From positions 218,630-250,629 of the forward strand of contig JAWBCC010000002.1 in assembly GCA_038823825.1 (NCBI GenBank): a stretch of DNA of 32,000 nucleotides. The letters are read 5' to 3'. The DNA comes from Candidatus Hadarchaeales archaeon. Lineage in GTDB: Archaea; Hadarchaeota; Hadarchaeia; Hadarchaeales; Hadarchaeaceae. A program made the position numbers and the translations under genes. Within the stretch, counting starts at the first letter, position 1, and each line of letters begins with the position of its first letter. The notes beneath the pieces were generated by a model. It was not told the origin of the DNA. It saw nothing but the letters and a program-made list of their open reading frames with translations, and made no database searches. Shown piece after piece: positions 2,360-25,196 of this stretch.

Positions 2360-3469
2360 TCATTCGATGTTTTCGATCAGTTTGGCAACACGTTCAAGAG
2401 AACTCGCATATCTCTTTCTGTGCTCCTTCAGAAAGTCGAGGAGGAGTTCTATAGCCATCTGCTTGCATTCCCCGCAGATCATTTTCCCGTTCATGCACAT
2501 CTCTCTGATTTCAAGAAGTTTCTCATCGCTGGGTATCAAGTGATAGAAATATAGATCGAAAACTCTACATATGTCCGGATTTCCTCCTTTTTCTCTTTGT
2601 TCTCTGGCCGTTGGCTTTCCACCGGTGAACGCATTCATGATCTTTCTCCTCACGGTTTCGTCGTCGTCTGTGAGAAACACAGCGCTTTCTGGTTTACTGC
2701 TTGACATTTTCTCCTCGATCAGCCCCGGCAAGAGTTTGTGATAGGTTGCTGATGGAGGAATGAATCCAAAATCTCTCTGGAATCTATTTGCTATATCTCT
2801 CGCCAGTCTTATGTGTGGGTCTTGATCGATTCCGACCGGAATGACCGTCGGTATCGGTCCGCAGAATTCGGGTAGTTGGGGGTGAAGGATGTCCGCCACG
2901 TCGATGATCGGATAGTATATCGAGGAAAGGCTGGATTCTCCGGAAAATCCGTAGATCGCCCTTAACTCGCTGAAGTTGACTTTTTTGGAGAGGAGGAAGG
3001 CGAGTTTCTTGACATGCTCATCCGTTGACTGAAAGTAAACGCGGCATCTCGAGAGATCAAGTCCTAAAGCATCGTAGTTGGCCAGATATTCTTCGATCGC
3101 TATTTTTCTAGCTTCCTCAAGCGATAGATCTCTCGCAGAATATGCCTCTAAATCGGCGACACAGAGAAATATCTTTGAACCTTTTATCTTCGAGTACCAG
3201 ATGAGCTGATCTATCACCATTTTGTGGCCGAGGTGCATCTTTCCGCTCGGCATCAGACCCGTCATGACCGCGAACTCTTCTCCGCGTAAGATTTTTTCCA
3301 AAATTCTTCGAAAATCTCTGTGGCCGAAAATTATCTTTCTCCTCATTATAGTCATTGGGTTTGGGATATCTGGAAGGAGTTCCTCAAATGGGGATATTCC
3401 AAACTCCTCCATTAGCCTCGCATAGTTCTCCGGAAGTGTGGCCTGCCAAGGATCGATTCTGACCGGCAT
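2360..3469 (-). CDS. trpS: Tryptophanyl-tRNA synthetase (archaeal/eukaryotic type)
   Basis: 369 aa. Class I HIGH-type motif (GKMHLGH) and KMSKS-type loop (KMSSSKP). N-terminal DPW...YARLMEEFGI block typical of archaeal TrpRS. The ATG at 3469 directly abuts the endA stop at 3470-3472. Confidence 0.85.
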   Translation of the reverse strand: MPVRIDPWQATLPENYARLMEEFGISPFEELLPDIPNPMTIMRRKIIFGHRDFRRILEKILRGEEFAVMTGLMPSGKMHLGHKMVIDQLIWYSKIKGSKIFLCVADLEAYSARDLSLEEARKIAIEEYLANYDALGLDLSRCRVYFQSTDEHVKKLAFLLSKKVNFSELRAIYGFSGESSLSSIYYPIIDVADILHPQLPEFCGPIPTVIPVGIDQDPHIRLARDIANRFQRDFGFIPPSATYHKLLPGLIEEKMSSSKPESAVFLTDDDETVRRKIMNAFTGGKPTAREQREKGGNPDICRVFDLYFYHLIPSDEKLLEIREMCMNGKMICGECKQMAIELLLDFLKEHRKRYASSLERVAKLIENIE

Positions 3470-3997
3470 TCAGAGCCGCTCCCTGTTTAACGAATAGTAT
3501 GTTACGTCTCCCTCATCATCGACGATGGCATATAATATTTTTTTACGCACGCTTTGCGCCACTCTGACGTCGCCAGAGATATCGCTTACACTAAACCTGG
3601 CGTGCTCCGGGACTACTCTCACCAAGAATTTCGAGTGAGATTCCGGCGGTTTTTCTCCTTTCTCATAAACTCTGAAGTGTGCTCCAAACTTTAAGCCTGT
3701 TCTTACTATGTATCCTCTGCCGCGCAAGTCTGAGTATGCCGCGTACTTAAGTGGAAGTAGTTTGTCTTTTTTCGAAAATTTAGCCATCAGCTGATTGAAA
3801 TCTAACTTCTCTCCGCGTTCGTAAACTTCGAGCTTTCCCTTCTCAACGAGGAATAGGGTTTCAACAGGCGCGAGCTGTAATTTTCCATCTCCAAGAAGTT
3901 TTCCGAAGAATCCCTTCTGATATATCCTGTTTGCCGCGAGGTTATCCGCAACGATCACGCGGTCGCCACAAAGTTCTCCTTTCGCGATTTCCTCCAT
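3470..3997 (-). CDS. endA: tRNA-splicing (BHB) endonuclease, homotetramer-size EndA
   Basis: 175 aa. Catalytic-domain blocks YSDLRGRGYIVRTGLKFGAHFRVYEKG and SHSKFLV. Starts 3 nt downstream of the radical-SAM gene stop, so co-transcription is likely. Confidence 0.9.
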   Translation of the reverse strand: MEEIAKGELCGDRVIVADNLAANRIYQKGFFGKLLGDGKLQLAPVETLFLVEKGKLEVYERGEKLDFNQLMAKFSKKDKLLPLKYAAYSDLRGRGYIVRTGLKFGAHFRVYEKGEKPPESHSKFLVRVVPEHARFSVSDISGDVRVAQSVRKKILYAIVDDEGDVTYYSLNRERL

Positions 3998-7492: not shown

Positions 7493-7623
7493 TGGTGGGG
7501 CCGCCAGGATTTGAACCCGGGTTTGCGGGTCTCACCGGCTCCAGTGGGTCATCATCTTTTCGTCAGCAGACCCACCTCATTCCACTGGAGCCCGCCGTGA
7601 TAACCAAGCTACACTACGGCCCC
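7493..7623 (-). tRNA. trnW: tRNA-Trp (anticodon CCA) with encoded CCA end and a 54-nt intron at the canonical 37/38 position
   Basis: Minus-strand read: GGGGCCG-UA-GUGU-AGCUUGGUUA-UCAC-G-GCGGG-CUCCAG [intron] A-CCCGC-AAAC-CCGGG-UUCAAAU-CCUGG-CGGCCCC-A-CCA. Perfect 7-bp acceptor stem, 5-bp anticodon stem, and a T-arm with a UUCAAAU loop. Confidence 0.9.
7531..7584 (-). ncRNA. Box C/D guide RNA embedded in the tRNA-Trp intron
   Basis: Intron read 5'->3': degenerate box C AUGAGGU (7574-7580), box D' CUGA (7563-7566), box C' AUGAUGA (7549-7555), degenerate box D GUGA (7532-7535). The spacers are complementary to the tRNA exons (see findings). Confidence 0.7.
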
Positions 7624-7660: not shown

Positions 7661-8824
7661 TTAAAGAGATGGTCCAAGCCAGAACAGAAATCCGAACAGG
7701 ATAAAGAGGACGGAAATTCCCAGAATTCTGAGTATGAGCGGTGGCTTCGGCACTGTTGGCACAAACAAATCTTCATCCGGTTCTCTTTCCTCTTCTGCCA
7801 CCGCCGCCACACCAGCCGTTGCAGGAGTCGCAACTTCACCGGCAGCTGCTCTTCCCCTCAGCCAGAGATAAACAATCCCTATTATCGACCACGGAACGCA
7901 AATAATGAGCAAAAGGTAAATCGGCAGTCCGAGCCTTAATATCGCAGGTACGGCATACGAAGAACTCACCAAAGCATTGTATTTGTTGAGATTCCAGAGG
8001 ATTATCGCCATACAAGAGTAAACTATGAGAGAATTCCAGAACGGATCGGAAGCAGAAACCAACTGAAGACCACCCAATCTCTTTTTCGTAAATGGCCAGA
8101 AGAGATTCCCACCCATATGGCCATAAGAATCAAAGATGATATGCCCAAGCCAACCCAAGAATGCGACGAGCCATGCTATCCAGTTTCTCAAAATAGCTCC
8201 GACCACAGCGGAAAGCAAAAGTCCGAGCGTTATGCTGTGACCGGCCCGTCTGTGGAAGGGAATGAAGATTATTTCGACGGATCCGTCCTCCCGCTTGAGA
8301 AATCCGAAAGAAGGTCCTCCAAAACCTTTTATCTCCGTCGGCTTTCCGTACGTTTCGATGATGTTTGGCTTGAATTTCGCGGAAGCGTAGGCCTTCTCCT
8401 CCGGAGGTTCTGTTCCGGGAATGGGAACGCCCGACGTTGTCACATGCGGTCCAACCCTAACCTCAACTTTCTTCTCCTTGGCGTTGAAGAAAACAGAGTA
8501 CTGTCTCCAGAGATCTGGTCCAAGTCTGATCGTGTGAAGTTTTATTTTATACATTTTGCCAGGTTTCATTTCCGCAGCCTTGTTTATCCCCTCCGCAACC
8601 TTTTCCGCGATTTCTTTCGGGTCGATCTTATCCGGATGAGGATCTATCACCGTGTCGTGTTCCTCCATGTAAATGAGAAATTTGAAATCGATCGTATCCG
8701 GGAGAAGTCCAAATATCCCACCAAGCAAAATTATGAGGGAGTCCTCAGCAGCTGCTCCGAAAACTAGACTCTTGAAGAACGTGGCGATCGTAAGTCCAAC
8801 TATGAAGTGGGTTAAGCCGCGCAT
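7661..8824 (-). CDS. Membrane-bound metal-dependent hydrolase, DUF457/YdjM family, with a soluble insertion of about 130 aa
   Basis: The motifs MRGLTHFIVG, LLPDTIDF, HRRAGHSITLG and GHIIFDSYGHMGG match the His/Asp pattern of DUF457. Multiple TM helices. ATG 8824 is preceded by a GGGGGAT SD (ORF-track TTG 8839 is the alternative). It lies 1 nt after the upstream stop. Confidence 0.6.
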   Translation of the reverse strand: MRGLTHFIVGLTIATFFKSLVFGAAAEDSLIILLGGIFGLLPDTIDFKFLIYMEEHDTVIDPHPDKIDPKEIAEKVAEGINKAAEMKPGKMYKIKLHTIRLGPDLWRQYSVFFNAKEKKVEVRVGPHVTTSGVPIPGTEPPEEKAYASAKFKPNIIETYGKPTEIKGFGGPSFGFLKREDGSVEIIFIPFHRRAGHSITLGLLLSAVVGAILRNWIAWLVAFLGWLGHIIFDSYGHMGGNLFWPFTKKRLGGLQLVSASDPFWNSLIVYSCMAIILWNLNKYNALVSSSYAVPAILRLGLPIYLLLIICVPWSIIGIVYLWLRGRAAAGEVATPATAGVAAVAEEEREPDEDLFVPTVPKPPLILRILGISVLFILFGFLFWLGPSL

Positions 8825-8825
8825 C

Positions 8826-10145
8826 TCAGTATCCCCCAAGCCAGCACGCTATCTGCTCACCCAAGCCAGCCATGTTGAGGAAAATCGGGAAGAAGAAACC
8901 CAAAACCAAGTTCAACCTTCTGGTTCTAAACATCGGCGGAATAAGCCCAAGTCCAGTTGTGATCACCAAAAGTAAAAGACCTGTGGCTCCAGCGAAAATG
9001 AAAACTATCGCAAGGATTATCATCATAGCCACAATCGAAATCTTCCTGTAGCTTATTCTTGTGACCATTTTTGAGAAGACAAACCGCGAAAGCAAGACGA
9101 GCAGAATGAATGCGAAGAGGGTGGTGAACGCAATTGTTGCAACGAGAAGCCAGAAATCCGAAGATGATCTTGGCTGATAGACCATGCTTGTGACCCACGC
9201 CATCCCTCCGCGTGTGAGGTGGAGGAGCGGAACCCAAAAGAGGAAGAACGCACCGACGTAGTATGCGAATCTTCCAGCAGATCCGGAAACCATAAACGAA
9301 GTGTCCCCCCTTGTTGACGTAGCATGCCCGGCTAACACTCCCCCAACCCCAGCCGTTATCACGGGCTGGAAGGCTGCGAAGGTTCCGCCGAGAAAACCGG
9401 CCATTGTCCCATGCGCAACTTCCTGCCATCCCGCGTATATCCCAGTCGATTTTGACTGCTCAGGCACCTTGGGATTCGAGAAGATGTTCATGAGAACCCA
9501 TGGCATTGCGAAAAATCCGACGAAAACCGGGAGGATGTTCTGGAAGGCTCTGTCAGGGGGCATCACCGGCGTGTTGAGAACGATGAAGCCCAATATCATC
9601 GAGAGGAAAAAGACAAATATCCCGGCAACGAGGCTAGACCAACCATCGGCTAATCTCCCGAGCCTCGTCTTTTTTCTGCTCCCCCAATCTTTTGGCCATT
9701 CAGACATCAAAAGATAAACCACAACCCCAATGAGTATCCACGCGAAGTGTGGTGTGGTTAACCTACGGAAGACTTGGAATAAATATGGTGCGGCTGGCGA
9801 GATGGCAACGAGAAGGATTGCTGCCCCAATTGCACCAAGCCCAGAAAGAAGGCAAGCTTCCTCTCCCCTACCGTATAGCAAATATTTCTGGTTCGGGAAA
9901 ACCATATAGAAGGTACTGTCGTCTGGCGAACCCATGTATGTTGTTGTTATTATGCCTACAACCGAGTAGGCTACCAGCATTCCTATGAGAAAGAGCGAAA
10001 AAGCTAGAGGATTGAAAGGATACGCAATGTAGATGACGACGGCTAGTCCAGCAAAATTCAATGGATGCAGTCCCGGCAGGATGGACAAACAGCTCCCGGC
10101 GAGAACACCAAGCATACCCCAAAGGAGATAGGCTAAGCTTTCCAT
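8826..10145 (-). CDS. Polytopic membrane protein, DUF112/TctA-like permease (tentative)
   Basis: 439 aa and about 10-12 TM helices. Internally repeated G-rich motifs (GMLGVLAGSCLSILPGLHPLN; GTMAGFLGGTFAAFQPVITAGVGGVLAGH) and a C-terminal GLIPPMFRTRRLNLVLG, recalled as COG1784/DUF112-like. GGAGGGTG SD upstream of ATG 10145. Confidence 0.45.
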   Translation of the reverse strand: MESLAYLLWGMLGVLAGSCLSILPGLHPLNFAGLAVVIYIAYPFNPLAFSLFLIGMLVAYSVVGIITTTYMGSPDDSTFYMVFPNQKYLLYGRGEEACLLSGLGAIGAAILLVAISPAAPYLFQVFRRLTTPHFAWILIGVVVYLLMSEWPKDWGSRKKTRLGRLADGWSSLVAGIFVFFLSMILGFIVLNTPVMPPDRAFQNILPVFVGFFAMPWVLMNIFSNPKVPEQSKSTGIYAGWQEVAHGTMAGFLGGTFAAFQPVITAGVGGVLAGHATSTRGDTSFMVSGSAGRFAYYVGAFFLFWVPLLHLTRGGMAWVTSMVYQPRSSSDFWLLVATIAFTTLFAFILLVLLSRFVFSKMVTRISYRKISIVAMMIILAIVFIFAGATGLLLLVITTGLGLIPPMFRTRRLNLVLGFFFPIFLNMAGLGEQIACWLGGY

Positions 10146-10149
10146 CTTC

Positions 10150-11607
10150 TTACACCCTCCATATGTCTTCTATCGAGCAAACATGGAGCACTTTTTCTCC
10201 CCCAACCACGGATATTTTTCCAACGGTGTTGATGTTCTCTCCAGCTCTGGGTGGATCCGGCAGTCGCTCATAGACGAAGTTTGGAATCAAAACTTTTTGA
10301 ACCAAACCTGATGGAGATTCGACCATGAGAATTCTGTCGGGTGGGAGAAGACCTTTTTCTCTCGTCGAGATCTCGACAATACGACCCGCAACCGTTGCCA
10401 AGATGTCGACCTCAAGAGTCTGGAGATTCTCAGCAATGGGAGGCAGAAATTCACCCTCCAAAACATTAGGAATTTGTGGCCCGACGAAAGTAACCACAAG
10501 CTTACCCTCCCTTTTTTCAACTTTTCCGACGAATTCGATCGAGCTTCCCCTCCTCACAAGCCTCTTCGTTTCAGGAGGAAGAGTCTGAAAGATTTCCTCT
10601 TCTATGTAGGCCTTCGGCATATTTACATTATCCAGCCACAGGATTCTCCTTGTGATCTTTAGACTGGTGGTGGTACCAACAGCCTCAGAGAGTGTTATTT
10701 TTCCAGATGTCTGGATGTAACTTCCGATGAGGTTTTCCGATATCTCAGAGAGTCGGACCAGTTTCGGTTCTTCTTTTCCCAACACTTCGATATCTGAGAA
10801 GAGTCCAACCATGAGCTGAGGTGTCCCCTTGTAGGAAGAAACGCCTCCAGTTATCCTGACTCTATCTAGAACTTCCAGCCCGAGCGGTCGTTTTTCAACA
10901 TAAACTTCGAGACCAAGGGGAACGTAAAGCTGGATTTCAGAGGAACCATCCGAGATGTAATATATGTTTGCAGAGCCGAGAGCCCGCATAGAGGTTACCA
11001 CCCCTTCAATCATCACCCTCTTGTAGAGCAGGGCAACATTTCTCAAGACGTCAGAAGGTGTGGAGACGACGGGTGAAAGGGGCTGGATTTTTATGTCACT
11101 GGCGAGGGAAACAGTCATCATCTTATCCCTCTCGGATAAAACTCGCGTTTGACCGAAAATCTTCACCCTGTCGCCAACACGTGGAATCCTTCTTTCCATG
11201 AGTAACTCTTCGAAAGCCGGAGAGTAAACCCTCACCTCTATGGTGGATATCTCTGGATCGGTCGAGCTAAAGTCTGAGACGGAGAAAGATATGTAGTTTC
11301 TCCCATAGAGAGGCCCGGAGGTTACAGTACCCTCAATCAGGTTGTGAGAATAATCCATCCACGTGTCGATCTGCGAGATGCTTATCGGCTCTTCCCCAGA
11401 TGCCTTGACGTGCATGAGGAAAGCCCCTACACCAAGCACCGCCAAAATCACACATATAACCCACAAATACAGAAGCCGGATTTTTCTAGTTGTATCGGTT
11501 AGGCAGTGTGGGCACGGAACTTTACCTCCTGTTTCCTTTCCGCAGACCGGGCAGATTTCATTTTTCTTCAAGGAATCACCTTTATGTCCTCCCAAGAAGC
11601 TACCCAA
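10150..11607 (-). CDS. Zinc-ribbon / single-TM / four OB-fold-like repeats protein (uncharacterised)
   Basis: CPVC-x10-CPHC, a basic stretch, then the TM helix LLYLWVICVILAVLGVGAFLM. Four units of about 90-100 aa follow. Units 2 and 4 end with OB-fold-type strands (RVRITGGVSSYKGTPQLMVGLFSDIEVL; INTVGKISVVGGEKVLHVCSIEDIWRV). The start is TTG 11607, or TTG 11571 in a TTGA overlap with the upstream stop, preceded by AGGTGA. Confidence 0.6.
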   Translation of the reverse strand: MGSFLGGHKGDSLKKNEICPVCGKETGGKVPCPHCLTDTTRKIRLLYLWVICVILAVLGVGAFLMHVKASGEEPISISQIDTWMDYSHNLIEGTVTSGPLYGRNYISFSVSDFSSTDPEISTIEVRVYSPAFEELLMERRIPRVGDRVKIFGQTRVLSERDKMMTVSLASDIKIQPLSPVVSTPSDVLRNVALLYKRVMIEGVVTSMRALGSANIYYISDGSSEIQLYVPLGLEVYVEKRPLGLEVLDRVRITGGVSSYKGTPQLMVGLFSDIEVLGKEEPKLVRLSEISENLIGSYIQTSGKITLSEAVGTTTSLKITRRILWLDNVNMPKAYIEEEIFQTLPPETKRLVRRGSSIEFVGKVEKREGKLVVTFVGPQIPNVLEGEFLPPIAENLQTLEVDILATVAGRIVEISTREKGLLPPDRILMVESPSGLVQKVLIPNFVYERLPDPPRAGENINTVGKISVVGGEKVLHVCSIEDIWRV

Positions 11608-12455
11608 AGCTGAGGTGTCCCATAGTAGCTTTGAAGAGCCCCGGAAACGGTTATCTTGGCACCAATCGCTGGGTACGCACCCCCAAACCTCTCGAGGAAC
11701 TTGGGGATCATGATGTTCATGGACTCCTGCGTTTCGACCTCATACAGCGTCAGATTTTTTGCAAAGCCGAGGTCGTCTATTGAAATAACTTTTCCTGTGA
11801 CTTCGAGTCTTTCATACTCCGTGAAGTTTTCCGGGAAGTGAACGACATCATGTATCCTGACTTTCCTACCGGCCGGACGTTCTATCTTCAAGAAACCTTC
11901 AGGATATTGAACGATCAGCATCTGGAACTGGTTGGCTTTATCTCCGACGGCTCTGACCCTTAGGCTTCCTCTGACCGTCACGATGTCTCCAACAGCTGGG
12001 AAAGCCGGAATCGGAGAGCCCTTGGCGAGTCGCTCGCTTTCAAGCCTGATGAGGGCCTTCGTGGTTGCGTCGTATGCCCTGATGAAAATGCTCGCCTCCG
12101 AATTTTCCGGATCGACGAGATACATGCCGAGAAAATTCGTATCCTCGTAAAATTTCACGAAAGTGGCTTTTCCCGTTAAGACGGCTTGCCCCATGTTCAT
12201 AAGAGTCGCGTTTTCTTTGAAGAGATCGGATATTGCGATTTGATAAGGCTGTTTTGCGATTATGTGCAATCCTCTGACGTCCGCGCAGAGGAAAAGAACA
12301 CCCAAAACGGCGACCGAGAGCCCACCCCACTTGAGCAACCTGAAGGAAAGCCTTTTTGGAACTTTACTTCCGCAATAGGGACACTTTTCCAGAGTTCCGA
12401 CGTATCTTTTACAATTTGGGCAAAAGACCTCCTCGGAGGGCCCCACCGGTTTCAT
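11568..12455 (-). CDS. Zinc-ribbon / single-TM / two OB-fold-like repeats protein, paralog of 10150-11607
   Basis: CPNC-x10-CPYC, then KRLSFRLLKW plus a TM helix, then two OB-like units. The last ends AKITVSGALQSYYGTPQLWVASWEDIKVIP. ATG 12455 is preferred over ORF-track TTG 12464. Confidence 0.6.
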   Translation of the reverse strand: MKPVGPSEEVFCPNCKRYVGTLEKCPYCGSKVPKRLSFRLLKWGGLSVAVLGVLFLCADVRGLHIIAKQPYQIAISDLFKENATLMNMGQAVLTGKATFVKFYEDTNFLGMYLVDPENSEASIFIRAYDATTKALIRLESERLAKGSPIPAFPAVGDIVTVRGSLRVRAVGDKANQFQMLIVQYPEGFLKIERPAGRKVRIHDVVHFPENFTEYERLEVTGKVISIDDLGFAKNLTLYEVETQESMNIMIPKFLERFGGAYPAIGAKITVSGALQSYYGTPQLWVASWEDIKVIP

Positions 12456-15971: not shown

Positions 15972-16727
15972 CTACCCAAACTTTCCTTTTATATAGAATC
16001 TGGTTCTTGGATTTCGAGCATTTTTGAATATTCGTCGACTGGTTCCGAATTCTACAAGTTTACCGAGGTAAAGAAATGCTACATAATCTGAAATTCTTGC
16101 CGCCTGCTGTATGTTATGCGTAACTATCACAATCGTATAATTCTTTTTCAAATCGTAGATTAAATTCTCGATTTTCCACGTGGAGATGGGATCGAGTGCG
16201 GAGCACGGTTCGTCCATGAGAAGAACCTCGGGCTCAACGGCGAGAGCTCTGGCTATGCAGAGTCTCTGTTGTTGCCCGCCTGAAAGCGCCAAGGCAGGAG
16301 AGTCAAGTTTGTTCTTTACTTCATCCCACAAACCGACCTTTTTTAGAACTTCTTCTACTCTTTCATGGATTTCTTTCCCGCTAAGGCCGCCGTTGATTTT
16401 TAATCCGTAGGATACATTTTCGAAAATCGATTTCGGAAACGGATTGGGTTTTTGGAATACTATTCCTATTTTTTGTCTCAATTCGCTGAGGTCCATCTTC
16501 GGAGAGTAGATTGATTTGCCATCTAGCAAGATGTCTCCGCTTACTTTCACGCTGTCAAACATCTCGACCAATCGATTGATCGTTTTCAGAAGCGTGGTCT
16601 TGCCGCATCCGGATGGGCCGATAATAGCCGTGATTTTATTCTCCGGGATTCTCATGTTTATGTTTTTTAATATCCAGTCCTCACCGAACCAGACGTTCAG
16701 ATTTTTTATCTTTATTTTGTCTTTCAT
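15972..16727 (-). CDS. pstB: Phosphate ABC transporter ATP-binding protein
   Basis: GPSGCGKTT Walker A, LSGGQQQRLCIARA signature and LLMDEPCSALDP Walker B, with PstB-typical context. ATG 16727 is preceded by GGTGAT and lies 2 nt after the pstA stop. Confidence 0.95.
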   Translation of the reverse strand: MKDKIKIKNLNVWFGEDWILKNINMRIPENKITAIIGPSGCGKTTLLKTINRLVEMFDSVKVSGDILLDGKSIYSPKMDLSELRQKIGIVFQKPNPFPKSIFENVSYGLKINGGLSGKEIHERVEEVLKKVGLWDEVKNKLDSPALALSGGQQQRLCIARALAVEPEVLLMDEPCSALDPISTWKIENLIYDLKKNYTIVIVTHNIQQAARISDYVAFLYLGKLVEFGTSRRIFKNARNPRTRFYIKGKFG

Positions 16728-16729
16728 AA

Positions 16730-17584
16730 TCACCACATCTTCTTTTTACCATAGTGCCACCTTATGATCGAGGCTCCAAGGTACATCGTAAGCACGAGCA
16801 TCATCAGAACAAGTGCTGTTCCAAATGCCATTGGTCTGGCAGCCGTTACATCGGGGTGTTCGACGTTAAGCACAAAAAGATGATAGGGGAGAGCCATCAC
16901 AGGTGCAAATATCGAGTTCGGTAGTCCTCTTGTATAAAAAACGGCCCCCGTAAACAGTATGGGTGCAGTCTCCCCCGCTGCTCTTCCTATACTCAGCATA
17001 GTGCCCGTTATCACGCCCGGTAACGCAGCCGGAAGCACGACTCTAAATATCGTCTGCCACTTGGTTGCTCCAAGCGCAAGACTCGCTTCTCTAAATTCAT
17101 TTGGAATGCTCTTCAGGGCTTCCATTGAACTTATCGTTATAGTTGGGAGAGTCATAAGGCTTAGCGTGAAGGCCGCCGATATGAGCGAGACCCCCCAACC
17201 CAAGAACTTGACGAAAAAGACCATGCCAAAAATTCCGAAAATGATCGAAGGAATTCCATTCAGATTGTAAATGGCGTTGATAATAGTTTCCCTAATTCTT
17301 CCTGGTTTCGCGTATTCTACAAGGTAAATTGCAGTCATCAGACCAAGCGGGAATGAGATGGTGACAGCGAGCGTTACTAGAAGAAGAGTACCGACTATTG
17401 CCGGAAAAATGCCGCCCCTCGTCATTCCCTCCCTCGGAAATCCGGTTAGGAATTCCCAACTCAAAACTCCAATTCCGTTTGTCGCTATGAAAAACACCAC
17501 GAGTCCTATGAACCCCAAAACGATCGTTATCGAAAGACGGGCTATCAGAAACGCGATTTTTTGGGAAATTTTTCTCGAATTCAT
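16730..17584 (-). CDS. pstA: Phosphate ABC transporter permease PstA
   Basis: 284 aa, 6 TM helices, EAA-type loop (EASLALGATKWQTIFRVVLPAALPG). ATGA overlap with the pstC stop. Confidence 0.9.
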   Translation of the reverse strand: MNSRKISQKIAFLIARLSITIVLGFIGLVVFFIATNGIGVLSWEFLTGFPREGMTRGGIFPAIVGTLLLVTLAVTISFPLGLMTAIYLVEYAKPGRIRETIINAIYNLNGIPSIIFGIFGMVFFVKFLGWGVSLISAAFTLSLMTLPTITISSMEALKSIPNEFREASLALGATKWQTIFRVVLPAALPGVITGTMLSIGRAAGETAPILFTGAVFYTRGLPNSIFAPVMALPYHLFVLNVEHPDVTAARPMAFGTALVLMMLVLTMYLGASIIRWHYGKKKMW

Positions 17585-18528
17585 CTGGCAACCCTCCTAA
17601 CTTTTCTTGAAATTATCCAGTTTGCAATGAAATTCACAGCAAAGGTTATTGCGAAAAGCACCAGTCCTATCCCAAATAGAGCACTGTAGTGAAGAGATCC
17701 GAACGAGACTTCACCCATCTCAATCGCAATTGTTGCCGGCATAGTTCTAACCGGAGAAAATATAGAGGTAGGGATTACGGCCGCACCTCCGCTTAACATC
17801 ATTACTGCAATGGTTTCACCAATGGCTCTTCCCAGTCCAAGCAGGACCCCTCCAACGATTCCAGATGAAGCTGCCGGTATCACAGCGTTTTTTATTGTTT
17901 CCCATTTGGTCGCACCGAGCGCAAATGACGCTTCTCTGTATTCGTTCGGAACTGCTCGTAGAGAATCCTCGATTATGCTAAGCATAGTCGGAAGAATCAT
18001 AAAGGCCAACACGAGCCCAGCAGTTAGCGCAGTCTGTCCAGTCGGTAAACCGAAAAATCTCTGAATGAAAGGCACGAGTACTACAAGTCCAAAAAATCCG
18101 TAGACAACGGATGGGATCGCCGAAAGCACTTCGACCGTGGTTTTGAGGAGATCTCTTACTTTTGAGCTGGCGATTTCCGAGATGTATATTGCTCCGAACA
18201 GCGCCAAGGGAACAGATACTGCCAAAGCAAGCGAAGTTACGAGAAGGCTACCCAATATCATCGGCGCGATGCCAAAGGAGGGGGGATGAGCGGTAGGTAG
18301 CCACTTATGGTTTAAGATAAAATTTGTGACCCCGATATTCGTGAATACCGGAATCGATTGAGTAAAAACGAATATGAAGATCAGAAAGACGAAAAATATG
18401 GAAAAAGTAGCGAAAAGACCTGTGACGGTCTTTCCGGAAAAGACACGCTTGGTTATCCCGCTAGGGAAAAAAAATGGTCGCCCACGGGTTTTCTCACGTG
18501 AGCGACACGAATCCCTTCTCCTCAACAA
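17581..18528 (-). CDS. pstC: Phosphate ABC transporter permease PstC
   Basis: 315 aa with EASFALGATKWETIKNAVIPAASSG. The TTG start is uncertain and overlaps the pstS 3' end by 35 nt. Confidence 0.85.
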   Translation of the reverse strand: MLRRRDSCRSREKTRGRPFFFPSGITKRVFSGKTVTGLFATFSIFFVFLIFIFVFTQSIPVFTNIGVTNFILNHKWLPTAHPPSFGIAPMILGSLLVTSLALAVSVPLALFGAIYISEIASSKVRDLLKTTVEVLSAIPSVVYGFFGLVVLVPFIQRFFGLPTGQTALTAGLVLAFMILPTMLSIIEDSLRAVPNEYREASFALGATKWETIKNAVIPAASSGIVGGVLLGLGRAIGETIAVMMLSGGAAVIPTSIFSPVRTMPATIAIEMGEVSFGSLHYSALFGIGLVLFAITFAVNFIANWIISRKVRRVAR

Positions 18529-19342
18529 TTCTCTGCCCCTCCGGCCCCTTGACGAACTCTATGAACTCTTTAGCGAGCCCAGATGGCTCTCCAATAGTGT
18601 ACATGTAAAGAGCTCTCGAAATCGGATACGTTCCATTTAAGATGTTTTGTTTTGTTGGAAGAACTCCGTTTACTGCAAGTGCTTTAACACCGCTGATATA
18701 ACTGATGCCGACATAACCAATTGCATTTGGGTTTGTTGAAACAATTTGTCGCATTTCTCCGCTCGACATTGTTGTTAGTACAGAAGAGGACATGTTCTCT
18801 CCTCTCATCACCAGTTCATGGAATGATTCGTACGTTCCGGAGGTAGTTTCTCTGGTATACACAGCGATCGTAAGATTCGGTCCACCTACTTCCGACCAAT
18901 TCCTTATTTCTCCAGTGTATATCTTCTTTATCTGCTCCAAGGTCAGGCTGTTCACAGGATTGCTCGGATGGACTATCACCGCTAGGGCGTCTAGCGCGAT
19001 TTTATGCTCGACCAGTCGTCCTCCAGCTCTCTCATTTTCTATGTTCTTTGCGCGTCTTGAAGACGTGGCTATATCGCATCTACCCTCTATTAGGGATGTT
19101 ATGCCGACACCGGAGCCGCCACCCGAAACATTAATAGTGTCGTACGGGTGAGCGTTCATCCATCTTTCCGCAGCAAGCTGTGTTATCGGTAAAACGGTGG
19201 TGGAGCCAGCGATGTTTATCGATCTTGGTTGAATGTTTGAACCATTTTCGCCTACTTCGTTCGTTCTTATGCCTACTAGAAAGACCGTAACCAGCACAAT
19301 ACCCAGGGCCACCGAGGCCACAACTACTGTCGTAACTTTCAT
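18494..19342 (-). CDS. pstS: Phosphate-binding protein PstS
   Basis: From ATG 19342: MKVTTVVVASVALGIVLV anchor/signal, then GSTTVLP...SGGGSGVG...TSGT, typical of PstS. TATA at 19372-19380. ORF-track start 19390 lies upstream of that TATA. Confidence 0.9.
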   Translation of the reverse strand: MKVTTVVVASVALGIVLVTVFLVGIRTNEVGENGSNIQPRSINIAGSTTVLPITQLAAERWMNAHPYDTINVSGGGSGVGITSLIEGRCDIATSSRRAKNIENERAGGRLVEHKIALDALAVIVHPSNPVNSLTLEQIKKIYTGEIRNWSEVGGPNLTIAVYTRETTSGTYESFHELVMRGENMSSSVLTTMSSGEMRQIVSTNPNAIGYVGISYISGVKALAVNGVLPTKQNILNGTYPISRALYMYTIGEPSGLAKEFIEFVKGPEGQRIVEEKGFVSLT

Positions 19343-19371
19343 TTTATCCCCAAGTAACGAAAAAGCGCTTC

Positions 19372-19424
19372 TTTTATATAGATTGTCCAAATATTTTATA
19401 TACCTGTAAATTAAGTATATAGAT
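19372..19424. promoter_or_regulatory. Divergent pstS / phoU promoter region with three phased TATATA cores
   Basis: TTTTATATA at 19372-19380, TTTATATAC at 19395-19403, and TATATAGAT at both 19375-19383 and 19416-19424. The cores are spaced about 20-22 bp apart. Confidence 0.4.
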
Positions 19425-19426
19425 CG

Positions 19427-20467
19427 ATGGCAGAGAGAAAAGAGGAAAGCAGGAGAATCCAGTTAACCGGAAAGTCCACTTACATCGTTTCTCTTCCGAA
19501 GTGGTGGGCCTCTGAAATGAAACTCAAACCAGGGGATATCATTAACATGATCGTTCAAGATGATTCCCTGTTGCTGACTGTAAGAAAGTCAGCCGTGGAA
19601 CACGAAAGAGAGAGAGAAGCCACCCTGAAGGTTTTACCCGATGAAAATCCAGACAAGATCATTAGAAAAATAGTTTCGCTCTATCTTGTTGGCTATAACA
19701 CAATCAGGATAATATCTGAGAAGGAAAGGATATCAAATCTGCAGAGCGAATTAATAAAGAATTTTGTGAGAACCAAGCTAATCGGGACAGAGGTGATTAT
19801 GGACCTCCCCACCGAGATAGTGGTTAAGGTGATACTCAGCTATCCGGAATTATCGATAAGAGACGCTGTTAGGAGGATGACGCTAATCACAAAGTCGATG
19901 ATCGAAGACTCGATAGAAGCCTTGAACAAAAAAGACCACGAGCTGGCCAGAAGCGTGATAGTCAGAGATGATGATGTGGACAGATTTAGTATGTATATAA
20001 TAAGGCAGCTGAAATCTGCCGTAGGAGATCGCAGAATAATGCGCGATGTTGGGATTGAAAGCGCGCGCGATTGTTTAGGATATCGACTGATCGTCAAAAG
20101 TGTGGAGAGAATTGCGGATCATGCTTCCACGATTTCCAAGAATGTGATTAAACTGCGAGGCGCAATCGATCATTCGGTTGTCGAGAAGCTTTCAGAAATG
20201 AAAGACCTAGTGGTGAGAGCATTTGAGAAAACAATCGAGTCACTTTTCAAAGAAGACCCAGAGTTATCCGAGGAGGTCATCGGGATGAAAGAGCTCGTCG
20301 TAAAATCCGAGAATCAAATAGACGAGATGATCATGAAAAAACCAGCGCGCACGGACGCGATAGTTATCAGCCTGATCGTCGAAAGTCTGCGTAGAATGTA
20401 CGAGTACAGCTGTGACATAGCAGAAGTAGTCTTGAATTTAACGTTAGAGAAGCAACAGGCGGTCTGA
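19427..20467 (+). CDS. phoU: Phosphate uptake regulator: N-terminal AbrB/SpoVT-type DNA-binding domain fused to PhoU repeats
   Basis: 346 aa. RRIQLTGKSTYIVSLPKWWASEMKLKPGDIINM is a swapped-hairpin AbrB-like domain. The helical remainder is PhoU-like (ERIADHASTISKNV, YEYSCDIAEVV). Divergent from pstS. Confidence 0.8.
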   Translation: MAERKEESRRIQLTGKSTYIVSLPKWWASEMKLKPGDIINMIVQDDSLLLTVRKSAVEHEREREATLKVLPDENPDKIIRKIVSLYLVGYNTIRIISEKERISNLQSELIKNFVRTKLIGTEVIMDLPTEIVVKVILSYPELSIRDAVRRMTLITKSMIEDSIEALNKKDHELARSVIVRDDDVDRFSMYIIRQLKSAVGDRRIMRDVGIESARDCLGYRLIVKSVERIADHASTISKNVIKLRGAIDHSVVEKLSEMKDLVVRAFEKTIESLFKEDPELSEEVIGMKELVVKSENQIDEMIMKKPARTDAIVISLIVESLRRMYEYSCDIAEVVLNLTLEKQQAV

Positions 20468-21404: not shown

Positions 21405-21978
21405 AATTTTGGTAAAAACAGCAAGGACGGTGATAGAAGAATACGTCAAGTACGGTAGAATCCCTCCCAAGCCTCAAGTCCCGGAAAGTCTTAAGCAACC
21501 CCGGGGAGTTTTTGTGACTCTCGAGAAGAGGGGAGAACTCAGAGGATGCATAGGTTATCCTTTCCCTTCGATGCCTCTGATAGATGCTCTTGTGGACGCG
21601 GCAATCAGTTCTGCTACGAGAGACCCCCGTTTTGAACCGGTCGGTCCTGAGGAGCTCGATGAGATAGAGATAGAGGTGAGTGTGCTCTCAAAACCCGAGG
21701 AAATTCGCGTGAAACATCCTAGAGAATATCTCGAAAAGATAGAAATCGGACGTGATGGTCTCATAGTTCAATATGGTGGATACTCGGGTCTCTTGCTCCC
21801 TCAAGTTCCGGTCGAATGGGGATGGGATGTCGAAGAATTCCTCTGTCAGACGTGCATGAAAGCTGGCCTTCCTCCAGACTATTGGCTGAAGAAGGATGTC
21901 AAGATAATGAAGTTTACGGCTCAGATATTTCGCGAAAGGTCTCCGGGCGGGGAAGTCGAGGAGAGGAGACTCATCTAG
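21364..21978 (+). CDS. AMMECR1 domain protein
   Basis: 204 aa with GVFVTLEKRGELRGCIGYPFP and ATRDPRFEPV, which are AMMECR1 signatures. Overlaps the upstream gene by 41 nt. Confidence 0.85.
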   Translation: MNVRSENLSLEEGKILVKTARTVIEEYVKYGRIPPKPQVPESLKQPRGVFVTLEKRGELRGCIGYPFPSMPLIDALVDAAISSATRDPRFEPVGPEELDEIEIEVSVLSKPEEIRVKHPREYLEKIEIGRDGLIVQYGGYSGLLLPQVPVEWGWDVEEFLCQTCMKAGLPPDYWLKKDVKIMKFTAQIFRERSPGGEVEERRLI

Positions 21979-22519
21979 TCTCTTCTTTCTTCTCCTTTCC
22001 AAGCAAAAGAGAAAGAAGGGTTTTTTCATCAACTTCCGCTCTTGTCCTCCAGCCCAAGTAAAGAACCCCCTTTTCGTCCTCCTGTAGATATCCCATCCTT
22101 ATGAATCTGTCGATGGCGCTCTCTACTCTCCACTTTGGGAATTTCTCCTCCAGGATCTTCTCGATTTCCTTGCCTGCCACCTTTCCCCCCCTTGCGAGAA
22201 TTGTGGCGAGCGTCATCGTCAAAATTGCCATGTCATCTATTCTCCATCCAAACGTTCTCACCTCTGAGAACTCCGGGTGTCCTCTGAAAGTTACAACAAA
22301 CCTATCAGACTCAGAGTCTCCCTCTTTAACGACCTTCACGGTTAGCCCGAGCTTCTCGAGCTCAGCGTCCAAAGCTTTTATCACATCCTCATAGTTTCTT
22401 CCCAAGGCTCTCCTCAATTCCCATCTTCTCGCCCCAGGTTCTCTGTGATGCTTGAAGAGAAGAAGCTGTGCGGCTCTAGAGAGTTTCTGCCTGATTTCGA
22501 CTTCATCCTTTTCTGGCAT
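21971..22519 (-). CDS. Tandem winged-helix kite-type SMC accessory protein (ScpB / Nse3-MAGE-like)
   Basis: 182 aa in two WH-like halves (AAQLLLFKHHREPGARRWELRRAL...LGLTVKVV; MAILTMTLATILARGGKVAGKEIEKILEE...IRMGYLQEDEKGVLYLGWRTRAEV). GGAGGA SD upstream. 17-nt overlap with the kleisin gene. Confidence 0.55.
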   Translation of the reverse strand: MPEKDEVEIRQKLSRAAQLLLFKHHREPGARRWELRRALGRNYEDVIKALDAELEKLGLTVKVVKEGDSESDRFVVTFRGHPEFSEVRTFGWRIDDMAILTMTLATILARGGKVAGKEIEKILEEKFPKWRVESAIDRFIRMGYLQEDEKGVLYLGWRTRAEVDEKTLLSLLLGKEKKEETR

Positions 22520-23288
22520 GCTTCCTCCACTCCTCGTAAGTTATTGGTATGACGAGAGTTCTCGGCTCAGCTTCTTGAGCGGGTTTGCTTCTCGGTCTGA
22601 TTATTATATCTTCTTCAAGAGGCCTGACTTCGACATCAACGTAGCCATAAGAAATCAGAAAACTCATGATCCAGGAACGTCTCACGGTTTCCTCAAAAGT
22701 TTTTGCGCATACCCACTTCCAGTAAGAGATTCCCCTTTTCCCCACATTTTGCAACATTTTTTTCCACTCTTCTTCAAGGATTCTGCTGAATTCTTCTTCC
22801 GAGAGGATTCCCATCTCTCGCAGTTCTTCCTCTGTTATCCTACCGGTCTGAAGCTCCATTCCGCCGAGTTCAGCTCCTCTTTCGCTGAGGGGCGGCAGCT
22901 CCGTCCAATAATCTAGACCGGTTCGCAGCGCCGATGGGGAAATGGATTCCATCTCCAAGATTGGATGCCAGCATTTCGTGAAAATTTCCGCAAGTTCCGC
23001 AGGCTCCATCACTTGCATCTTGAGTGTTATGAGGAGAGGGTCCAAGTAAAGCACAGAAGACCTGTGTTTGAGCCACTCGCTTTGGTGAAGTATGACATCC
23101 GCGAGTCCGGAAACTGCCCGCATGTCCAGGTAAAGCTCTTCGAGCTTCTTCAACTCCGGGAAAAGTTCACGCAGTTTTTCGAGAAGCTCTTTGACCTGCA
23201 CGTCAAACGGATCCAGACCTCTTGATCTAACACTCTCGCATAGGTCGATTATCCTCTCGATTATTTCTCTTTTTTCCTTCACTTTCAT
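22503..23288 (-). CDS. Kleisin (ScpA / Nse4-like) SMC bridging subunit
   Basis: 261 aa. N-terminal helical segment RGLDPFDVQVKELLEKLRELF. C-terminal WH-like ETVRRSWIMSFLISYGYVDVEVRPLEEDIIIRP. ATGA overlap with the SMC-like gene stop. Confidence 0.55.
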   Translation of the reverse strand: MKVKEKREIIERIIDLCESVRSRGLDPFDVQVKELLEKLRELFPELKKLEELYLDMRAVSGLADVILHQSEWLKHRSSVLYLDPLLITLKMQVMEPAELAEIFTKCWHPILEMESISPSALRTGLDYWTELPPLSERGAELGGMELQTGRITEEELREMGILSEEEFSRILEEEWKKMLQNVGKRGISYWKWVCAKTFEETVRRSWIMSFLISYGYVDVEVRPLEEDIIIRPRSKPAQEAEPRTLVIPITYEEWRKHARKG

Positions 23289-25164
23289 CCGACTACCTCC
23301 ACTCTGGATACCCCGCCGATTTTCTGCACAGTTATGACGTTTTGGATTCCCTCGACGTTCGTTATCTGTCCTGGCGTGATCAAAACGTACTGCGCTTCTT
23401 CATCTCTAGTGACTTCAATGAGGCCACGGAGGAGCTCCTCCCTATTTTTGGGATCTAGATGGGCTTCGAACTCGTCTATTGCGCGGAATGGCGATTTTAT
23501 CTTTCTCTGGAGGGCGAGCAGGAAGCACATGATCGCAGAGGTTCTTTCACCCCCGCTGTGAACTTGTGCGTCCAGCAGCGTCGGTTCCATTCCCCTAAAC
23601 CCGACGGATATCTCAAGCCCAGCCCTCTCGATATCTTCTGGATTGGAAATGAAAAGATCTCCGGTTCCTCCGACCCTCTCCAAGAATCTTAAGTAATCTT
23701 TTCTGATTTCATCCAGAAGTCCTTCAATCTCTTTTTTCCACCTCTCTTTTCTCAGTTCTAACTCTTCCAAGGCTTTTCTTCTGTTTTCTTCAGCGATCGT
23801 TGCCTTCTCCTCAAGATCCTTCACTGTCTGCTGGTAGCTCATGAACATCTTTTCCACGTCGGGTGAGATGTCAGCATAAACGGCGAGCTGTGTGTTAACA
23901 GCTCTAAGCTCGTCAAAGACATCCTGGGGTTTTCGTCCGCTCTTTATTCTTTTTCCAACCTTTTCAGCCTCTGCGATGAGCTCCTCCAGCTCTCTCCTGG
24001 TTCTCCTGGCCGAGCTTTTCAACTCTGAGAGTTTTTCGGCTAGGATGCTCTTTTTTAGGTCGGAGACAGCCAACTTGATTTTAATCTGCGTCCCCTGATC
24101 CCTAGTTTCTCTGATTTTCCTCTTTATTTCAGCGATCTTTTCCTTCAGCCTCTCGATTTCTACCGCTTCCCTACCAATTTTGAGTTCCTTTTCGATTTTT
24201 CTAAGCTCAGTCTTATCAGAAATCAGCCTGCCGAGTTTTTCCAGAACCTCCAATCTACCTTCGGCTCTAGCCTGAATTCTTTCACACTCGATTAGCCTGT
24301 TGTAACTCGCCTCGAAATCGAGCTCAAGCTTCTCGAGCAATCTGTCACAGGCATCATCCTCCTTTACCAGTTTCTCCATCTCTCTCGAGATCTCTGCTAG
24401 CTCCGATTCCTTTTCAGAAATTTCCGTTTCGAGTGACTGTAAGGCTTCCTCTTGCTTTTCGACCTTCGCCCAGGCGTATTCGAGCTCCAGTTCCTTTTTC
24501 CTCCTTTCAAGCTCGATTTTTCTTTTGAATCTTTCATACTCCTTCTCCCAATAGCGCAGGGTTTCTCTGGCCTTCTCAAGCATCGCTGTGATCGACTGTT
24601 CTTCGCTCAGAACGTGTGAGAGTTTTTCTCTTGCCTCGATAATTCTTTCCCTGTATTCCCTGAGACCGACAGCTTCCTCGACCATTCGAAGTCTCTCGGT
24701 TGGGTCTACAGCACCGAAAACGTTTATCATGTTTTGATGCATTATGATGAGCATATTCTCTGGATTTATGGAAAGTCTTTCGAGGAGGCGGAGGACCTCC
24801 CCTTTGCTGACCATTCTGTTGTTTATCTCGTGCCAGTAGTTTCCATCCCTGCTCAGGTAACGGGATAAAACCACCGTATCGGCAGGTATGCTCGGAATCG
24901 GCCGTTTCCCATCTTGTGGGCTATTGTTGAAAACTATGCTCACCCGTCCGAGTTTCTCACCTCTCCTTATCAAGTCTCCAAGTCTTCTTGACCGTTCCGT
25001 GTATGTCTGCCCCAGCGCAACAGATATTCCTAAGAGAATGGAGGACTTGCCGGCTCCGTTTGGCCCGCAGATGAGGTTGAGCCCCGGCTTCAGCGGGACC
25101 CTTGTGTACACGTGGCTCATGAAGTTCTCCAGGATGACTTCTTTTATTATCGAATTTTCTGCCA
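23285..25164 (-). CDS. Short, hinge-less SMC-like ATPase with an Smc5/6-flavoured head
   Basis: 626 aa from ATG 25164 (630 aa from GTG 25177). LENFMSH, Walker A GPNGAGKSS, IIMHQNMINVFGAVDP, about 350 aa of coiled coil, then HSGGERTSAIMCFLLALQRKIKSPFRAIDEFEAHLDPKNRE...QYVLITPGQI. Confidence 0.75.
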
Positions 25165-25196
25165 TAGAGTTCCCCACTCTTAGACTCTACGCCAAC

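Follow-up and report, generated by a model that had tools for sequence, protein, structure and literature searches.

Bacterial ComEC combines DUF4131, which holds a transmembrane (TM) segment and an OB fold, with the Competence domain PF03772 and a metallo-beta-lactamase (MBL) nuclease. The OB fold and the nuclease cooperate on the outer side (PMC12455585). In the archaeon Methanococcus maripaludis JJ, two adjacent genes, MMJJ_13020 (an OB-fold protein with one TM helix) and MMJJ_13030 (a TctA-like protein that has 11 TM helices), are each indispensable for natural transformation: in-frame deletions abolish transformation, and both deletions were complemented (Fonseca et al. 2023, PMC10133366). 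A TctA-like homolog of Methanoculleus thermophilus, SAMN04488571_104187, is also required; the TctA-like protein was proposed to fill the place of the missing archaeal DNA transporter, and it was remarked that TctB and TctC are absent (PMC10133366). M. maripaludis mutants that lack either the OB or the TctA-like gene are transformed by neither replicating nor integrating plasmids (PMC10133366), and intact polymer must therefore enter this organism. A search of the available literature returned no paper on an OB/TctA-like system later than that work. Here, we analyzed a 32-kb stretch of a Candidatus Hadarchaeales archaeon genome (contig JAWBCC010000002.1; hereafter, the window) that carries an operon of four genes, G1 to G4, encoding two OB-fold proteins, a TctA-like permease, and a YdjM-type membrane hydrolase. 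With slightly more confidence than doubt, we read this operon as a Hadarchaeal expanded version of the OB-fold/TctA-like natural transformation module, that is, a machine for taking up extracellular DNA independently of ComEC.

The four open reading frames (ORFs) are co-directional on the minus strand and span 12455 to 7661. The features of the operon, with the genes taken from ORF calls on the window, are as follows:

11568 to 12455, minus strand: G1, ATG start, 295 amino acids (aa)
10150 to 11571, minus strand: G2, TTG start, 473 aa; gene model identical to database protein P0173
8826 to 10145, minus strand: G3, 439 aa, behind a 4-nucleotide (nt) spacer after G2
7661 to 8824, minus strand: G4, ATG 1 nt past the G3 stop, 387 aa
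12484 to 12492, minus strand: TATA-like element TTTTTATT, ~33 nt upstream of the G1 ATG, read from the sequence

A first-pass annotation of this DNA had described four minus-strand genes packed with overlaps or junctions of 1 to 4 nt and one TATA-like element ahead of them, and we recovered both. The TTG start of G2 shares letters with the TGA stop of G1 in a TTGA overlap, and a Shine-Dalgarno-like GGTGA motif lies 8 nt upstream of that start. Judged by its position, TTTTTATT is the putative operon promoter, with a spacing that fits an archaeal TATA box followed by a very short leader. The gene model of G4 is identical to the NCBI entry "MAG: metal-dependent hydrolase [Ca. Hadarchaeales archaeon]" (P0121).

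Like the methanogen pair, the operon places single-TM OB-fold genes directly upstream of a TctA-family permease, G1 and G2 preceding G3 at overlapping or 4-nt junctions. The Pfam families are the same, TctB and TctC are missing from both, and the hypothesis of a ComEC substitute is shared. In contrast to the methanogen pair, the operon permease belongs to a ~440-aa subfamily of its own that has an additional conserved loop, the OB protein is represented by two paralogs (apparently 2 plus 4 OB folds), each with an N-terminal zinc ribbon, and a YdjM-type hydrolase forms a conserved third component, which does not appear among the transformation genes that we found listed in PMC10133366. Import of extracellular nucleic acid had been put forward in the first-pass annotation as a reading of a system not previously described. 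The reading itself gains from the finding that members of the same two families are essential for transformation in M. maripaludis; the statement that no system of this composition had been described was wrong for the OB plus TctA core, which was published in 2023 together with a DNA-transporter hypothesis (PMC10133366).

The paired zinc-ribbon/OB-fold proteins

G2 consists of a C4 zinc ribbon (aa 7 to 23), a TM helix (aa 33 to 57), and four tandem OB folds, whose beta-barrel units occupy aa 76 to 163, 185 to 266, 285 to 362, and 391 to 472 of the AlphaFold2 (AF2) model (predicted local distance difference test [pLDDT] 85.4). Pfam matched G2 to PF01336 well above the cut-off (E = 7.5e-11; 42.3 bits; cut-off 27). 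Foldseek matches of G2 in the PDB were exclusively tandem-OB DNA binders (probability 1.00), the best being p204 HINab-dsDNA (5e-14), followed by Teb1, POT1, TEBP-alpha, LEF-3, and RPA, and the G2 profile also matched archaeal RPA32, STN1, and ExoVII-L among PDB sequences. G1 begins with a C4 zinc ribbon (Cys12, Cys15, Cys26, and Cys29), followed by a single TM helix at about aa 42 to 64 and an ectodomain. Its Pfam matches were weak (DZR and tRNA_anti-codon); it is, however, a collinear paralog of the zinc-ribbon/TM/OB1/OB2 half of G2 (BLASTP, 8e-15), and from this paralogy we infer two OB folds in the G1 ectodomain. The architectures first proposed for these proteins, a zinc ribbon and TM helix followed by two OB folds in G1 and four in G2, thus hold for G2 on AF2 and Foldseek data and for the count in G1 by way of its paralogy to G2.

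We extended the comparison to 16 OB proteins from clusters of this kind. PF01336 was matched in 15/16, the ExoVII-type family PF13742 in 7, and the ComEC family DUF4131 (PF13567) also in 7. The OB repeats therefore belong to the nucleic-acid-binding OB class, and DNA would be the ligand at this locus. All 16 homologs share an N-terminal C4 zinc ribbon and one TM helix, with a charge of +1 to +6 in the flank ahead of the helix and a neutral or negative flank behind it; in G1 the net charge is +4 ahead of the helix and 0 behind it. Because the C4 zinc ribbon is of cytoplasmic type and the charge bias across the helix recurs in 16/16, we predict an N-in/C-out topology, with the zinc ribbon in the cytoplasm and the OB arrays on the outside. 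Both the OB nature of the repeats and their outward orientation had been proposed beforehand and agree with these data, the former through the Foldseek matches to DNA binders.

The architecture resembles that of ComEC in that a membrane-proximal OB fold, predicted to face outward, stands beside a polytopic membrane protein and a metal hydrolase. The TM helix and OB1 of G2 also show weak sequence similarity to DUF4131 (PF13567; E = 1.2e-3; 19 bits, below the cut-off of 31.6), and the 7/16 matches to this family in the cluster OB proteins (E <= 0.01) range from subthreshold to borderline, the best reaching E = 3.6e-07. The membrane-proximal TM plus OB unit is the one possible homologous link to ComEC. 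Unlike ComEC, the operon version is split over several genes, and its polytopic part is of the TctA family rather than PF03772, which found no match at E <= 1 in any of the four operon proteins. The operon hydrolase is of the YdjM rather than the MBL type, and its predicted orientation is toward the cytoplasm, whereas the ComEC nuclease acts outside. The resemblance is therefore architectural for the OB and permease parts and weak for the hydrolase, and the suggestion that the operon mirrors all three ComEC modules holds in architecture for the first two and is weak for the third. Given the PF13567 matches, the companion phrase "non-homologous analogue" perhaps overstates the case where the OB part is concerned.

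No MBL gene was found in the window by tblastn or Pfam. In three other lineages, small MBL-fold genes do occur no more than two genes away from the cluster (10411 to 11052 of L003, 12465 to 13088 of L005, and 3944 to 4615 of L001); the L003 copy, which is archaeal, and the L005 copy, which is bacterial, are orthologous (40% identity), and the L001 copy comes from a different family. We left these genes out of the system and rejected them as a ComEC-like MBL partner, since they have no apparent N-terminal signal or TM helix, belong to two different families, and are absent from the window.

ComEA, the competence receptor of Gram-positive bacteria, is similar to G1 and G2 in function, as we propose it for the latter: bitopic, outward-facing, and concentrating DNA at the membrane. 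It differs in that it binds DNA through a helix-hairpin-helix and has neither OB folds nor a zinc ribbon, and it shows no homology to G1 or G2.

A TctA-family permease and the conservation of its locus

G3 matched TctA (PF01970) over the full length of the profile (positions 1 to 423 of 423; E = 4.7e-39; 134.6 bits; cut-off 28.9), in agreement with the TctA-like polytopic protein noted in the first-pass annotation. It shares 65 to 67% identity with other Hadarchaeales proteins, and its profile found no match among PDB sequences. An exhaustive HMMER search placed G3 in a compact subfamily of ~440-aa proteins (73 representatives at E <= 1e-30) and recovered a larger group of ~400-aa relatives at 25 to 29% identity. 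Profiles of the two subfamilies aligned over 393 columns with a probability of 100% (hhalign; E = 1.9e-59). A conserved loop at aa 148 to 170 of G3 (9636 to 9704, minus strand; SEWPKD...R.KT..GRL.DGW), with E149, P151, and W169 invariant, is present in the ~440-aa subfamily only and absent from the ~400-aa one. The M. maripaludis permease MMJJ_13030 appears to be a homolog from the sister ~400-aa subfamily, because its termini as deduced from the published cloning primers (INNLFFLIFG... and ...TILYFLKI*) look like those of that group. A degenerate DNA pattern derived from primer ML1-30 retrieved 34 loci from genome contigs, none from Methanococcus, and the three archaeal loci among them had no TctA, OB, or YdjM homolog.

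Scanning metagenome contigs yielded 438 loci of the G3 subfamily, the best 80 of which formed 56 clusters at 90% identity; the counts that follow refer to these best 80 of 438. Where enough flank was available, an OB gene lay upstream of TctA on the same strand in 33/36 clusters, and at least two OB genes were present in 14/36. A YdjM gene with the insertion described below lay downstream of TctA in 22/35 clusters, or in 16/24 of those with at least 5 kb of flank. The synteny counts of 33/36 versus 22/35 make OB plus TctA the core of the cluster, with the YdjM-type hydrolase as a third component that is common without being universal; the hydrolase is not core, since the OB-TctA pair is conserved without it at one third of the loci. 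The cluster occurs in Hadarchaeota, Asgard archaea, other archaea, and bacteria. A related Hadarchaeote has the identical order OB298-OB482-TctA-YdjM, a Promethearchaeota genome (L045; GCA_054681365.1) has OB-OB-TctA-YdjM, a more distant archaeon has OB-TctA-YdjM, and another archaeon has PKD/OB-OB-OB-TctA-YdjM, with a PKD plus OB protein next to the cluster; bacterial contigs carry the cluster as well. In one contig, an OB array is fused to TctA in a single protein, P0200, with a YdjM gene behind it (L048, 1403 to 3976; GCA_021772705.1, JAJFLN010000157.1). Because the synteny is kept in many unrelated contigs, the four-gene arrangement is more than chance, and the synteny in other genomes on which the first-pass annotation had staked its reading is present across archaea and bacteria.

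The annotation of G3-type proteins in databases is "tripartite tricarboxylate transporter permease," and an ordinary tripartite tricarboxylate transporter (TTT) for tricarboxylates or other organic anions, surrounded by unrelated neighbors, is a conventional account of the locus. G3 is indeed a full-length Pfam member of the family to which the permease of TctABC belongs. The operon nevertheless departs from TctABC in having neither TctB nor the binding protein TctC and in having OB-fold proteins and a membrane hydrolase as partners; archaeal TctA homologs also have 11 TM helices rather than 12 (PMC10133366). By Pfam, TctB and TctC were found neither in the 30 ORFs of the window nor in the annotated related loci; a TctC-type binding protein had been named in the first-pass annotation as a sign against its reading. 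Translationally coupled junctions join the four genes, the OB association recurs in 33/36 loci, and the OB::TctA fusion exists. We consider a TTT transporter highly improbable and rejected its conventional form, TctB and TctC both being missing from the window and the annotated loci. Membership in an antiphage defense system was likewise rejected, PADLOC defense-protein models having found no match for any of the four operon proteins.

The YdjM-type hydrolase and neighboring genes

G4 matched YdjM/DUF457 (PF04307) at 48.4 bits (cut-off 29). The YdjM and YbcI proteins of this family are LexA-regulated putative hydrolases of the inner membrane; YdjM homologs are annotated as no more than putative metal-dependent hydrolases bound to the membrane, "possibly phospholipase," and fall under SOS control in Escherichia coli and Staphylococcus aureus (PMC11442139). 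In an alignment of 35 G4 homologs, D46, H191, R192, H196, S197, H228, D232, and N240 are invariant; among these, the His/Asp set that G4 keeps (D46, H191, H196, H228, and D232) provides putative metal ligands. It differs from YdjM and YbcI in being about twice the typical length, in its C-terminal acidic linker and extra TM helix, in its genomic tie to OB-TctA genes, and in an orphan domain between TM2 and TM3. The AF2 model (pLDDT 85.7; predicted template modeling score 0.81) shows ~7 TM helices plus this beta-rich domain:

8255 to 8662, minus strand: orphan soluble domain of G4, TM2-TM3 insertion, aa about 55 to 190, ~135 aa; one helix and about nine strands in AF2

The DUF457/YdjM-like hydrolase with a soluble insertion that the first-pass annotation described is therefore present. 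The insertion is conserved across the 35 aligned homologs. Taken alone it matched no Pfam family and no PDB sequence, and the whole of G4 had no significant PDB relative in either a Foldseek search or a profile search of PDB sequences; Foldseek did return OB-like matches for the insertion, all of them nonsignificant. A literature match to "DUF457" proved to be DUF4579 in a paper on CRISPR Cap1 and is irrelevant to G4.

The topology of G4 was derived from the positive-inside rule. Over the 35 homologs, K/R counts came to +0.9 at the N terminus, -1.0 in loop 1-2, +2.0 in loop 4-5, -0.4 in loop 5-6, and +2.3 just past TM6. A seven-helix, N-in model, which needs residues 198 to 233 to form a helical hairpin, predicts that the insertion and all invariant His and Asp residues lie on the cytoplasmic face.

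A YdjM-type lipid hydrolase working with a permease for its product would suit a cluster that maintains or remodels the membrane or surface, with OB proteins that bind a polymer other than nucleic acid and with methanogen transformation defects that are secondary, arising for example through the pilus or S-layer. The phospholipase annotation and SOS regulation of YdjM homologs (PMC11442139) are in keeping with such an indirect role, as are the ability of OB folds to bind oligosaccharides and the overall acidity of the ectodomains. The OB units, however, match only nucleic-acid-binding families and folds (PF01336, PF13742, RPA32, STN1, HIN, and POT1), and OB-TctA pairing is kept without YdjM at one third of the loci. 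We regard this explanation as quite unlikely; like the TTT reading, it loses ground to three features: OB folds of the nucleic-acid type, the lack of TctB and TctC, and the gene fusion.

Housekeeping genes flank the operon: genes for the A-type ATPase, an aminoacyl-tRNA synthetase, EndA, polyamine synthesis, and TFB, together with pstSCAB-phoU. The last of these, at 15972 to 20467, is an operon for phosphate uptake, complete with pstS-pstC-pstA-pstB and accompanied by a divergent MazE/AbrB-domain + PhoU regulator; it lies 3.5 kb from the OB-TctA-YdjM operon. Directly downstream of G4 lies a gene for tRNA-Trp(CCA) (7496 to 7623, minus strand) with a 54-nt intron at position 37/38, which was found by Rfam and by ARAGORN with introns enabled and missed by ARAGORN at default settings. 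The intron bears box C/D-like motifs (aatgagg...ctga...gatgatga), like known guide RNAs in archaeal tRNA-Trp introns. A class I Trp/Tyr-type aminoacyl-tRNA synthetase gene (2360 to 3997, minus strand) adjoins the gene for the tRNA-splicing endonuclease EndA, 3.5 kb from the intron-containing tRNA-Trp gene. At 21971 to 25177 (minus strand), three co-directional genes encode a MAGE/Nse3-like protein (weak match, E = 0.005), an Nse4_C kleisin-like protein (E = 1e-4), and a 630-aa SMC_N ATPase (E = 1.7e-31); this trio could be an archaeal SMC5/6-like set.

Neighbors at related loci include a 1,587-aa protein encoded directly upstream of OB-OB-TctA-YdjM in the Promethearchaeota genome (49 to 4812 of L045), which joins a lamin-tail domain (LTD) to two PLD-type (Nuc-like, PLDc_2) domains and, from its domain content, is a candidate secreted nuclease partner. 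A neighbor at one related bacterial locus gave a faint match to Exo_endo_phos. In a bacterial lineage (10268 to 11859 of L005; also L042 and L043), YdjM lies ~2.5 kb downstream, and a 312-aa gene of no recognized family and a SpoU methylase gene stand between it and OB-TctA. The YdjM-type gene there is translationally coupled, with a 4-nt overlap, to a gene for a 185-aa protein with a double zinc ribbon; this protein could correspond, as a separate polypeptide, to the zinc ribbons fused to G1 and G2.

Several of these neighbors bear on nutrient scavenging as an explanation of the operon. Here, OB arrays would bind extracellular nucleic acid or oligonucleotides and replace TctC as tethered binders, G3 would import short anionic fragments or nucleotides, and G4 would hydrolyze the imported phosphodiesters at the inner face, providing P, C, and N. 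Such a system requires no polymer channel and is consistent with the small-anion transporters of the TctA family (PF01970); the predicted cytoplasmic active site of G4 suits breakdown after import, pstSCAB-phoU lies 3.5 kb away, and secreted-nuclease-like genes (LTD plus PLDc_2; the faint Exo_endo_phos match) occur at related loci. However, loss of the OB or TctA-like protein in M. maripaludis abolishes transformation by plasmids, whether replicating or integrating, and the closeness to the pst operon is not conserved at related loci. We judge scavenging, the main rival to DNA uptake, unlikely.

DNA uptake as the favored reading

If the operon is instead a DNA uptake machine, as we favor, G1 and G2 would be anchored as type II membrane proteins, each with its zinc ribbon in the cytoplasm and one helix in the membrane, and together they would present six nucleic-acid-type OB folds on the surface. 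These arrays would capture DNA, probably passed on by type IV-like pili, and keep it at the membrane, a role parallel to that of ComEA plus the ComEC OB fold in bacteria. The TctA-like permease G3 would either form the route through the membrane or drive the crossing. At the inner membrane face, the His/Asp site and orphan domain of G4 would be at work; G4 could process the incoming polymer, cleaving strands or trimming ends, or remodel the lipid that surrounds the conduit, and it may dock the cytoplasmic zinc ribbons of G1 and G2.

A number of points weigh against this reading, and the strongest concern the genetics, the permease fold, and the fusion protein. The genetic data come from methanogen relatives, outside this locus and the ~440-aa subfamily, and concern no YdjM-type partner; the characterized M. 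maripaludis permease appears to belong to the sister subfamily, at about 21 to 29% identity. The TctA family consists of secondary transporters for small anions, and passage of a polymer through such a fold is hard to explain. The fusion P0200 has no zinc ribbon, TM helix, or signal peptide before its OB array and carries a K/R-rich linker before its first TctA helix, which is at odds with outward-facing arrays unless the gene model is faulty. In addition, the transformation phenotype of the methanogen mutants could be indirect. Members of the ~400-aa subfamily are often solitary, and the two that we looked up have no OB gene. The ectodomains are mildly acidic (isoelectric point, 5.2 to 5.8), YdjM is absent within 7 kb at one third of the loci, and the orientation of G4 comes from a positive-inside count rather than a dedicated topology predictor. 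Hadarchaeota are uncultured, and we know of no competence in them.

A broader proposal would make OB-TctA-YdjM a widespread, three-component, ComEC-independent DNA translocon of Hadarchaeota, Asgard archaea, other archaea, and several bacterial lineages, in which OB arrays anchored by zinc ribbons, their membrane-proximal OB fold distantly homologous to that of ComEC, pass DNA to a repurposed TctA-type permease, and YdjM, with its cytoplasmic orphan domain, serves as a strand-processing or gating subunit. We hold this version to be doubtful. If true, it would represent a second, evolutionarily separate solution to DNA import and would give the DUF457 fold its first assigned function.

The OB plus TctA core as a DNA uptake module is already published, with genetic support. 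New here are the distinct permease subfamily and its conserved tie to a YdjM-type hydrolase bearing an orphan domain, the zinc-ribbon/TM/multi-OB architecture in two paralogs, and the wide distribution that includes Asgard archaea and bacteria. For the route by which transforming DNA crosses the archaeal membrane, the methanogen OB/TctA-like pair reported in 2023 is the sole genetic lead. The Hadarchaeal locus places that pair at the center of a larger module that is kept in archaea and bacteria alike, and about two thirds of the examined loci add to it a particular YdjM-type hydrolase, one of whose domains lacks recognized relatives. It points to new candidates: the hydrolase with its invariant His and Asp residues, the zinc ribbons predicted to be cytoplasmic, and the SEWPKD loop of the permease. 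A possible common origin of the membrane-proximal OB fold and that of ComEC is also hinted at. The candidate uptake system is thereby extended to Asgard archaea, Hadarchaeota, and some bacteria, and its genes could serve as a genomic mark of competence.

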